Of a stretch of DNA of 64,000 nt, positions 19,466 through 20,096 are shown piece after piece. This DNA comes from an uncultured Candidatus Saccharibacteria bacterium (GTDB lineage Bacteria > Patescibacteriota > Minisyncoccia > Phycocordibacterales > UBA1006), in the NCBI GenBank assembly GCA_964601935.1, contig CAZROP010000001.1:275661-339660 (forward strand), read 5' to 3'. A model generated the notes under the pieces. That model saw only the letters and a list, made by a program, of their open reading frames with translations. It was not told where the DNA came from and ran no database searches. The position numbers and the translations under genes were made by a program. How positions within the stretch are numbered: the stretch's first letter is position 1; every line of letters starts with the position of its first letter.

Positions 19466-19493
19466 TCAAAGTACTTGACAAAATATAATGATA
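19466..19493 (+). promoter_or_regulatory. sigma70-like promoter (TTGACA-16-TATGAT)
   Basis: Near-consensus -35 and -10 boxes on the + strand. They face a roughly 600-bp ORF-free region. Confidence 0.35.
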
Positions 19494-19599
19494 TGCTATG
19501 ATACTAGATGTGGAGACAGAGTTAGCTGTATCCCAATCAGTATTTCACCAGAGAGACATAATTGCTCTCTATCTCATATTATTGCTTTGCGTGATCGGG

Positions 19600-19760
19600 T
19601 TCGCCGGGTCGTGGCGGGATAGTATGAATCGGATGAAATCCTGATTGGGGTACAACTGCCGCCGTGGCACTGCCGGGACAGCATACCTGCGCATCAGCCC
19701 GCGTTGACCCATAACGGGTGTCCTTCGAGATGCTTTGCCATCGGGGTCACCCACTGTGTA
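19600..19760 (+). promoter_or_regulatory. GC-rich structured RNA element with cobalamin-riboswitch-like blocks (unverified)
   Basis: Ordered blocks GGGATAG, GGATGAAATCC, GGGGTACAACTG, GGCACTG, CGGGACAGC and ATACCTGCG resemble the AGGGAA, GGUGAAAUCC, CCCGCAACUG, GCCACUG, GGGAAGG and GACCUGCC blocks recalled from memory. Local GC is far above the surroundings. Confidence 0.25.
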
Positions 19761-19777
19761 TTTCCTTAACCTTAAAA

Positions 19778-19800
19778 AAATCTTGATGCTCTGCATCAAG
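19778..19800 (-). terminator. hairpin plus T-run on minus strand (cttgatgc-aga-gcatcaag then ATTTTTTT)
   Basis: Perfect 8-bp stem. Possibly the 3-prime end of a minus-strand RNA running from about 20110 to 19775. Confidence 0.35.
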
Positions 19801-20046
19801 GTACCGACAAGAGGAACTCGAGCGTCTATCGGTGGAAGTCCGATACTATAGACGATTGCCCAAGTGCAGGCAGTCAATAGCTCGAGTATATGGGTCTGTT
19901 CAGTCCATACTCATCCTCGTTGAAACAAAGCAGGAGTCAAAGTCCTCATTAAGAAGGGAGCTCAATCGGAGTGTCTCGAGGCAAGATCGACCAGCAAAAA
20001 AATCCTCCCGTTCTGCACGCATCAGATTGCACATAGCAGCCCCGGA

Positions 20047-20096
20047 GGTATCGGCCGAATCCACTACAGATTGTAGTTGGATCGGCCGATTTTTTA
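20047..20096 (+). terminator. strong rho-independent terminator on + strand
   Basis: atcggccgaatccactaca...tgtagttggatcggccgat followed by TTTTTT. Confidence 0.5.

Follow-up and report, generated by a model that had tools for sequence, protein, structure and literature searches.

A candidate structured RNA beside dnaE with a conserved 5' domain and a replaceable 3' tail in a narrow group of Patescibacteria

A candidate non-coding RNA gene at the 3' end of dnaE

The ORF-free gap of 884 nt (19286-20169) between an MscS-like gene and the 3' end of dnaE most likely encodes a previously undescribed RNA that is found only in a few closely related CPR bacteria. Positions refer to the window, i.e. 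the whole 64-kb stretch of DNA that was analysed. The favoured reading, to which a probability of roughly one in two is assigned, is a lineage-restricted, independently transcribed non-coding RNA gene, in which a three-way junction of ~150 nt would be under selection and the tail would be replaceable.

According to this proposal, a promoter at 19475-19502 would drive a plus-strand transcript, expected to begin near 19509, that converges on the 3' end of dnaE. The first ~150 nt of the transcript would fold into a three-way junction closed by a helix of ~27 bp. This 5' domain would be the selected, functional part and perhaps the mature product, most likely acting as a protein-binding or processed stable RNA. 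Its long closing helix may define or protect the ends, perhaps by serving as a processing stem of the RNase III type. Downstream, ~385 nt would form a replaceable transcribed spacer, and tandem terminators would keep transcription out of dnaE. The elements of the locus are as follows.

16966-18201, plus strand: tyrS (tyrosyl-tRNA synthetase), just upstream
18246-18602, plus strand: IGR-B, a second putative orphan transcription unit (core 18391-18547)
18614-19285, minus strand: gene of an MscS-like membrane protein, 223 aa
19286-19474, minus strand: upstream region of the MscS-like gene, outside the RNA unit
19475-19502, plus strand: predicted promoter, TTGACA (19475-19480), 16-nt spacer with extended -10 TG, TATGAT (19497-19502), consensus match 11/12
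19520-19662, plus strand: 5' domain, predicted three-way junction with covariation, holding the first three of six cobalamin-riboswitch-like sequence blocks
19523-19549 with 19631-19658, plus strand: closing helix P1, ~27 bp
19550-19570, plus strand: hairpin A
19574-19627, plus strand: hairpin B
19663-20047, plus strand: variable 3' module, not conserved, including the GC-rich block 19658-19775 with blocks 4-6
19775-19800, minus strand: hairpin CTTGATGC-AGA-GCATCAAG followed by ATTTTTTT, from a terminator scan
20050-20097, plus strand: predicted intrinsic terminator 1 (inverted repeat I5), 19-nt arms 84% complementary, hairpin 20050-20090 followed by TTTTTTATTT
20103-20137, plus strand: predicted intrinsic terminator 2, CACTTCTT / AAGAGGTG followed by T8, 33 nt ahead of the dnaE stop, from sequence reading
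20170-23442, minus strand: dnaE, whose stop codon borders the gap

Genomic context and related loci

The DnaE protein of the window genome shares 71% identity with DnaE of a 'Candidatus Nomurabacteria' MAG and ~50% with that of many Paceibacteria, and the genome, which was assembled from SRR13208889 and SRR13208906, is assigned to the Patescibacteria (CPR) as Nomurabacteria/Paceibacteria-like. Related loci were located via homologues of the MscS-like protein and TyrRS; the DnaE-based search yielded only L083's own protein as a close relative. L083 (a 136-kb contig) and L095 (423 kb) stem from the same metagenome and are 82-90% identical to each other in coding DNA, versus ~72% between either of them and the window. 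L097 is about equally distant from the window group and the L083/L095 group, and the short contigs L090 and L091 come from a genome that resembles L083. Two contigs with the same MscS-like protein match the window at 100% identity and are thus uninformative.

In L083 and L095, the unit is found beside the dnaE 3' end with the same parts, namely a predicted promoter, an ORF-free stretch and a strong plus-strand terminator. The terminator lies ~32 nt from the dnaE stop in both (in L083, from the stop of a displaced remnant) and 32-70 nt from it across the window, L083 and L095. L097 has the gene order of the window (tyrS, IGR-B, MscS-like gene on the minus strand, dnaE), but its MscS-like start and dnaE stop are only ~130 nt apart, and the unit is absent from it. 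Since it is missing in a relative with the same gene order, the unit is judged to be dispensable.

Searches for further copies indicate a narrow distribution. Neither blastn nor nhmmer matched the gap in 80 dnaE loci of GTDB species representatives, the closest of which carries a different spacer. A covariance model of the 5' domain (R1), which scores its training copies at 115-178 bits, matched only its training sequences in 901 kb comprising the window, the 80 dnaE loci and other related loci, so that no second copy was found in the window or in these loci. A marginal R1 match (L064, 7487-7556) was rejected as an AT-rich hairpin, and pattern matches in L020 and L062 were rejected as lying inside coding sequence. 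Phage and plasmid collections held no match to the unit, and a pattern scan of viral contigs was empty. A metagenome pattern scan allowing 65-95 nt between the arms, a range that leaves out L083-type copies (97 nt), gave two matches (L093 and L094), both rejected as AT-rich chance matches. A pattern that admits the L083-type spacing is TTGACA N{45,70} AATNAGNATTNCA N{75,105} TGNAATNCTNATT.

The segment 19286-19474 belongs to the MscS-like gene rather than to the RNA unit. Relatives align here only beside that gene (19286-19331 with L083 and L095, 19286-19354 with L097), and its fold z is -1.9 on the plus and +0.35 on the minus strand. A replication origin or terminus at this site was rejected because the GC skew shows no switch. 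No T-box match was obtained upstream of tyrS (16725-16965). Further long gaps in the window are located at 10813-11461, 13549-13923, 34109-34569 and 62125-63304.

The locus is rearranged among relatives. Compared with the window and L097, the lineage of L083, L095 and L090 has the MscS-like gene and ~46 nt of its upstream region in the opposite orientation (window 18614-19331 versus L083 4956-5663 and L095 11652-12355), while tyrS, IGR-B and dnaE keep their orientation. Moreover, in L083 the segment 6298-8647 begins with a duplicate of the dnaE 3' end (131 nt, 6298-6428), and the functional end of dnaE lies at 8648. The insertion of ~2.2 kb between the remnant and the functional end holds an ORF of 468 aa without a Pfam match and looks like an element that integrated at the dnaE 3' end, bringing a replacement end. 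The inversion and the insertion fit with the dnaE 3' end being a hot spot of recombination or integration, and such a hot spot could also explain the turnover of the tail. The contigs L090 and L091 both end (~1150) in the 5' arm of the closing helix, perhaps owing to a repeat or to a hairpin that interrupted assembly or coverage.

The conserved 5' domain

Unusual fold stability within the unit is confined to two places. For 19503-20100 as a whole, the fold z is -6.2 on the plus and -3.5 on the minus strand; after splitting, it resides in 19520-19662 (z -5.9) and in the terminator region 20040-20140 (z -6.8). The predicted three-way junction measures ~145-157 nt in the window, L083 and L095, and all copies share one architecture, in which a closing helix of ~27 bp encloses two hairpins, one short and the other long and irregular. 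P1 is slightly imperfect, and the junction has 3-10 unpaired nt on its 3' side only. Hairpin B of the window aligns poorly with its counterparts in L083 and L095.

Between L083 and L095, the 5' domain is 86% identical and the DNA on either side of it is unalignable, making it an island of conservation. Differences affect 12% of the paired but 27% of the unpaired columns. In the consensus of the window, L083 and L095, 45 pairs are formed, 12 of them with double-sided changes that are spread over all helices. Pairing holds for 94.7% of the cells as compared with 36-51% when the partners are slid by 1-3 columns, and the slid controls show 0-2 double-sided changes; none of 500 shuffles reaches the observed pairing, covariation score or double-change count. 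The structure was derived from the same alignment that was used for these statistics, and the three full sequences represent two lineages, which is why the covariation is considered supportive but short of conclusive.

The plus strand of the 5' domain is more stable than the minus strand by 13-19 kcal/mol in each of the three genomes (-59.8 versus -46.6 kcal/mol in the window), and one U.G pair is common to all of them. Both observations favour a helix in a plus-strand RNA over an inverted repeat at the DNA level. No conserved ORF was found in the 5' domain across the window, L083 and L095, and no terminator or obvious processing signal was found after it. The earlier note had named the joint absence of an Rfam match and of a covariation-supported structure as the outcome that would speak against it; a covariation-supported structure does exist in the relatives. 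Its idea of a structured plus-strand RNA holds as regards the predicted promoter, the ORF-free region and a covarying fold, and fails as regards the stretch, the signal being that at 19520-19662.

The GC-rich block and the 3' tail

The stretch 19600-19760, which had been described as GC-rich and densely self-complementary, has indeed a GC content of 0.59 compared to 0.447 in the window and ranks in the top 0.3% of 161-nt windows. Its self-complementarity is a different matter: unusual fold stability is seen in the part that belongs to 19520-19662 but not in 19658-19775, where the fold z is 0.0. With -1.1, 19800-19990 likewise folds no better than shuffled sequence.

The tail measures ~385 nt in the window, ~150 nt in L083 and ~340 nt in L095; each copy ends in its own terminator, and the GC content of the tails is odd. 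No significant similarity was detected between the tails of the window and L083 (114 of 300 shuffles score as well), the window and L095 (320 of 500), or L083 and L095 (178 of 500). With the 5' domains of L083 and L095 86% and their flanking genes 82-90% identical, the tail appears to have been replaced by a different sequence and not simply to have drifted. The tail of L095 is itself strongly structured (z of its whole unit, -8.3), and the view of the tail as a mere spacer may therefore fail in some genomes.

A weak similarity links window positions 19632-19695, which cover the 3' arm of P1 and the GC-rich block, to the minus strand of L083 at 4841-4895, upstream of the MscS-like gene of that contig (1 of 500 shuffles as good). 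It was not reproduced in L095 (75 of 500 shuffles as good), and a degenerate second copy upstream of the L083 MscS-like gene was rejected as probably a chance match with no L095 counterpart.

Transcription signals and coding potential

Judged by its consensus match, the promoter is predicted to be a strong one of the sigma-70 type. The earlier note had recognized the motif correctly and set its start ~9 nt too early, at 19466 instead of 19475. The window promoter is homologous to that of the L083 unit (local alignment score 33 versus a shuffle maximum of 29), and the 16-nt spacing and the TG recur in the promoters of L083 (5879-5906) and L095 (12754-12781), both of the form TTGACA-16-TAnnAT. 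The similarity reaches past the hexamers and aligns over four genomes. L095 (12671-12781) and L090 (~1000-1100) have tandem near-consensus promoters ~83 nt apart upstream of the 5' domain; the window and L083 have one each.

At the other end, the strong plus-strand terminator that had been reported at 20047-20096 was recovered as a hairpin at 20050-20090 with a T run to 20097. The second hairpin with its T8 (20103-20137) had gone unmentioned; it falls within a weak PyrR-like hairpin match of the permissive Rfam search. That no CDS follows the structured region was borne out, the predicted transcript ending at tandem terminators that face the dnaE stop.

The gap contains no credible ORF, in agreement with the earlier reading. 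The candidate frames (25-104 codons) are short and unconserved, contain many R/C/S residues and have no Pfam match, and they cross the terminators or begin inside the -10 box. No Pfam match was obtained for the stop-free frames of the tails of the window, L083 and L095, and these tails have no small ORF in common. A pseudogene remnant was rejected because both Pfam and a blastx search of the gap against all ORFs of the related loci came back empty. A plus-strand ORF of 48 codons (19498-19644) encodes the hydrophobic stretch IIALYLILLLCVIGFAG and resembles a type I toxin, a candidate that was likewise discarded: since its start lies inside the -10 box and it is not conserved in L083 or L095, this ORF is probably fortuitous.

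On the minus strand, the hairpin with a T run that had been noticed at 19778-19800 is real and extends from 19800 to 19775. A separate minus-strand RNA from 20110 to 19775, as the earlier note suggested, is not backed by a predicted promoter. No promoter was predicted on the minus strand of 19800-20170, and for this reason the hairpin is most simply taken as the intrinsic terminator of dnaE, probably located in a read-through 3' UTR. No canonical minus-strand terminator was found between the dnaE stop (20170) and 19800.

Known RNA families

The earlier note had likened the region to a cobalamin riboswitch on account of six short sequence blocks. All six were found in the stated order (19616, 19631, 19647, 19666, 19674 and 19683; span 19616-19691), and the likeness ends with these short strings. 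Rfam 15 gave no match at gathering thresholds and ARAGORN no tRNA or tmRNA in the whole 64-kb window. Permissive Rfam searches (E<=10) of the 2.1 kb at 18200-20300 and of a 301-nt query (19500-19800) returned only microRNA-precursor or terminator-like noise. At both stringencies, RF00174, the AdoCbl variant, RNase P, tmRNA and 6S RNA, the families singled out for such a check, remained unmatched. The absence of RNase P RNA and tmRNA, for which the note had looked by way of their conserved motifs, was thus upheld, and SRP RNA has no Rfam match in the gap either. For the L083 homologue, Rfam likewise returned nothing beyond such noise.

The B12 box, whose consensus we take to be approximately AGYCMGGAGACCKGCC, was not found with up to 3 mismatches in 19286-20169; its single match elsewhere in the window is at chance level. 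Blocks 1-3 are taken up by hairpin B and the P1 3' arm, an arrangement that the cobalamin fold does not allow, and blocks 4-6 lie in sequence that is unconserved in the homologous units and no more structured than chance. No ORF follows, and hence no gene for B12 transport, synthesis or use is encoded downstream. A cobalamin riboswitch or a variant of it is accordingly regarded as exceedingly improbable, and the riboswitch part of the proposed orphan riboswitch-controlled RNA lacks support.

Alternative explanations

Given the instability of the locus, the unit might be a functionless remnant of recombination. It might also be a repeat at the DNA level, for example one that marks the ends of a small mobile element or of a segment able to invert. 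The duplicated dnaE 3' end and the insertion of L083 are situated exactly here, lineages differ in the orientation of the MscS-like gene, no tail resembles another and their GC content is odd, the unit is present in some relatives and absent from others, and the L090 and L091 assemblies break at the 5' arm of the helix. A long inverted repeat alone, however, would leave the double-sided changes in the two inner hairpins unaccounted for, and conserved U.G pairing, the plus-strand advantage in stability and a promoter conserved at a fixed distance point to an RNA. A MITE or inverton should also leave other traces: no further copy of the unit turned up in the window (64 kb) or in related loci (~900 kb), the phage and plasmid collections gave no match, and the neighbours of the unit are dnaE, the MscS-like gene and tyrS, i.e. 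no recombinase or transposase. Debris or a repeat is therefore held to be rather unlikely. Regulation of dnaE in cis is a second, unlikely option, in which dnaE transcription would run on to the minus-strand terminator at 19775, the plus-strand RNA would be complementary to ~320 nt of the dnaE 3' UTR, the 5' domain would give stability or recruit a nuclease, and the duplex would tune the decay of the dnaE mRNA. It draws on the convergence of the unit on dnaE with a terminator 32-70 nt from the stop in three genomes, and complementarity that does not depend on sequence would explain the tail's freedom to change. The position of a minus-strand terminator inside the unit, with none closer to dnaE, suits this option in the window, but the L095 unit has no clear minus-strand terminator. 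In L083, the functional end of dnaE lies 2.3 kb away, past the insertion, and yet the promoter and the 5' domain are intact; L097 manages without the unit. The tandem terminators suggest selection against antisense transcription into dnaE, though they are silent on the 3' UTR.

Two further explanations concern the tail. As a modular RNA, the unit would combine a conserved protein-binding scaffold, the three-way junction, with an exchangeable 3' 'cargo' that differs per genome. This is a speculative idea of low probability; if it is true, the cargo might guide an effector in these reduced CPR bacteria or act as a decoy for it, or it might be a sequence-independent antisense module that controls dnaE, and the IGR-B RNA with its similar closed-junction design would join the same RNA repertoire. 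It is very unlikely that the 5' domain is instead the structured 5' UTR of a small-protein gene whose tail encodes differing short peptides. L083 does have a 16-codon ORF with a strong AGGGGG Shine-Dalgarno sequence, and the window a 21-codon GTG ORF after GGAG, but these peptides do not resemble each other, and a comparable ORF, with its own Shine-Dalgarno sequence and start codon, is missing from L095. The 48-codon frame offers no help to this explanation given its start inside the -10 box and its lack of conservation in L083 and L095, and known switching leaders fall far short of the stability of a closing helix of ~27 bp. The lineage-restricted non-coding RNA gene thus stays the preferred reading.

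A second putative RNA and implications

IGR-B is located between tyrS and the MscS-like gene and has a conserved predicted promoter (TTGACA-17-TACATT at 18246) and a bidirectional terminator (18560-18596). Between them lies a junction of ~157 nt whose closing helix spans 25 bp (18400-18421 with 18513-18534). The unit is also conserved in L083, L095, L097 and L090, and four genomes including L097 share an invariant core of ~45 nt, ATCCCGTCTTTTCACAGGCTCGTGGAAAGGAAAGTG. Its consensus comprises 64 pairs, 14 with double-sided changes, and no Rfam match was obtained. Lineages differ in where IGR-B lies relative to the MscS-like gene, and it is therefore not a fixed cis-regulator. By these comparisons, the candidate RNA of IGR-B appears better supported than the dnaE-side unit.

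CPR/Patescibacteria genomes are tiny and contain little non-coding DNA, and to our knowledge their regulatory RNAs are almost unexplored. The locus holds, within 2 kb, two putative orphan RNAs with predicted promoters, covariation support and no Rfam family. The pattern of the dnaE-side unit is unusual, with a conserved structured head and a tail that seems to be swapped wholesale, next to the gene of the replicative polymerase. If expressed, the unit would offer access to RNA-based regulation in organisms that are not yet culturable alone. As a candidate of a narrow clade, its practical importance is modest; the main gain is the removal of a false riboswitch call and the relocation of the real signal to 19520-19662.

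Comparison with known systems

No comparable RNA was found in Rfam or by full-text searching of the literature on CPR/Patescibacteria RNAs. The cobalamin riboswitch (RF00174) resembles the gap RNA in its short strings of similar order, its GC-richness and its location after a promoter. The two differ in that the gap RNA matches neither the covariance model nor the B12 box, the secondary structure is another one, nothing regulated lies downstream and half of the strings are unconserved in the gap-RNA homologues. With 6S RNA (RF00013), the candidate shares a length of ~150 nt, a long and slightly imperfect closing helix and a strong predicted promoter, and like 6S and other long-helix stable RNAs it may be processed from a longer precursor. 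In contrast to 6S RNA, it has two inner hairpins and no two-sided central bubble, and there is no Rfam 6S match.

Cis-encoded antisense RNAs arise from convergent units, examples being the riboswitch-controlled ones in Listeria and Clostridium. The gap RNA is similar in that it would converge on the neighbouring gene and probably overlaps its 3' UTR. Unlike these RNAs, it is predicted to meet two strong terminators before the dnaE coding region, and its L083 homologue is no longer beside a functional dnaE.

The closest likeness in kind is to the orphan structured ncRNA candidates, i.e. Breaker/Weinberg-type motifs, that were obtained by comparative genomics of intergenic regions (PMC2864571, PMC8632094). 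Like them, the gap RNA is located in an ORF-free intergenic region that is GC-rich relative to its genome, has a predicted promoter and an intrinsic terminator (both consensus matches), and forms a multi-helix junction backed by compensatory changes among three homologous sequences, features by which ncRNA genes are recognized in general. It differs from these motifs in being known from just two sister lineages (four contigs) and absent from Rfam 15, and in that only its first ~150 nt are conserved and the rest is swapped between genomes. The gap RNA is thus best described as a candidate orphan structured bacterial ncRNA with one unusual trait, the combination of a conserved head and a swapped tail.
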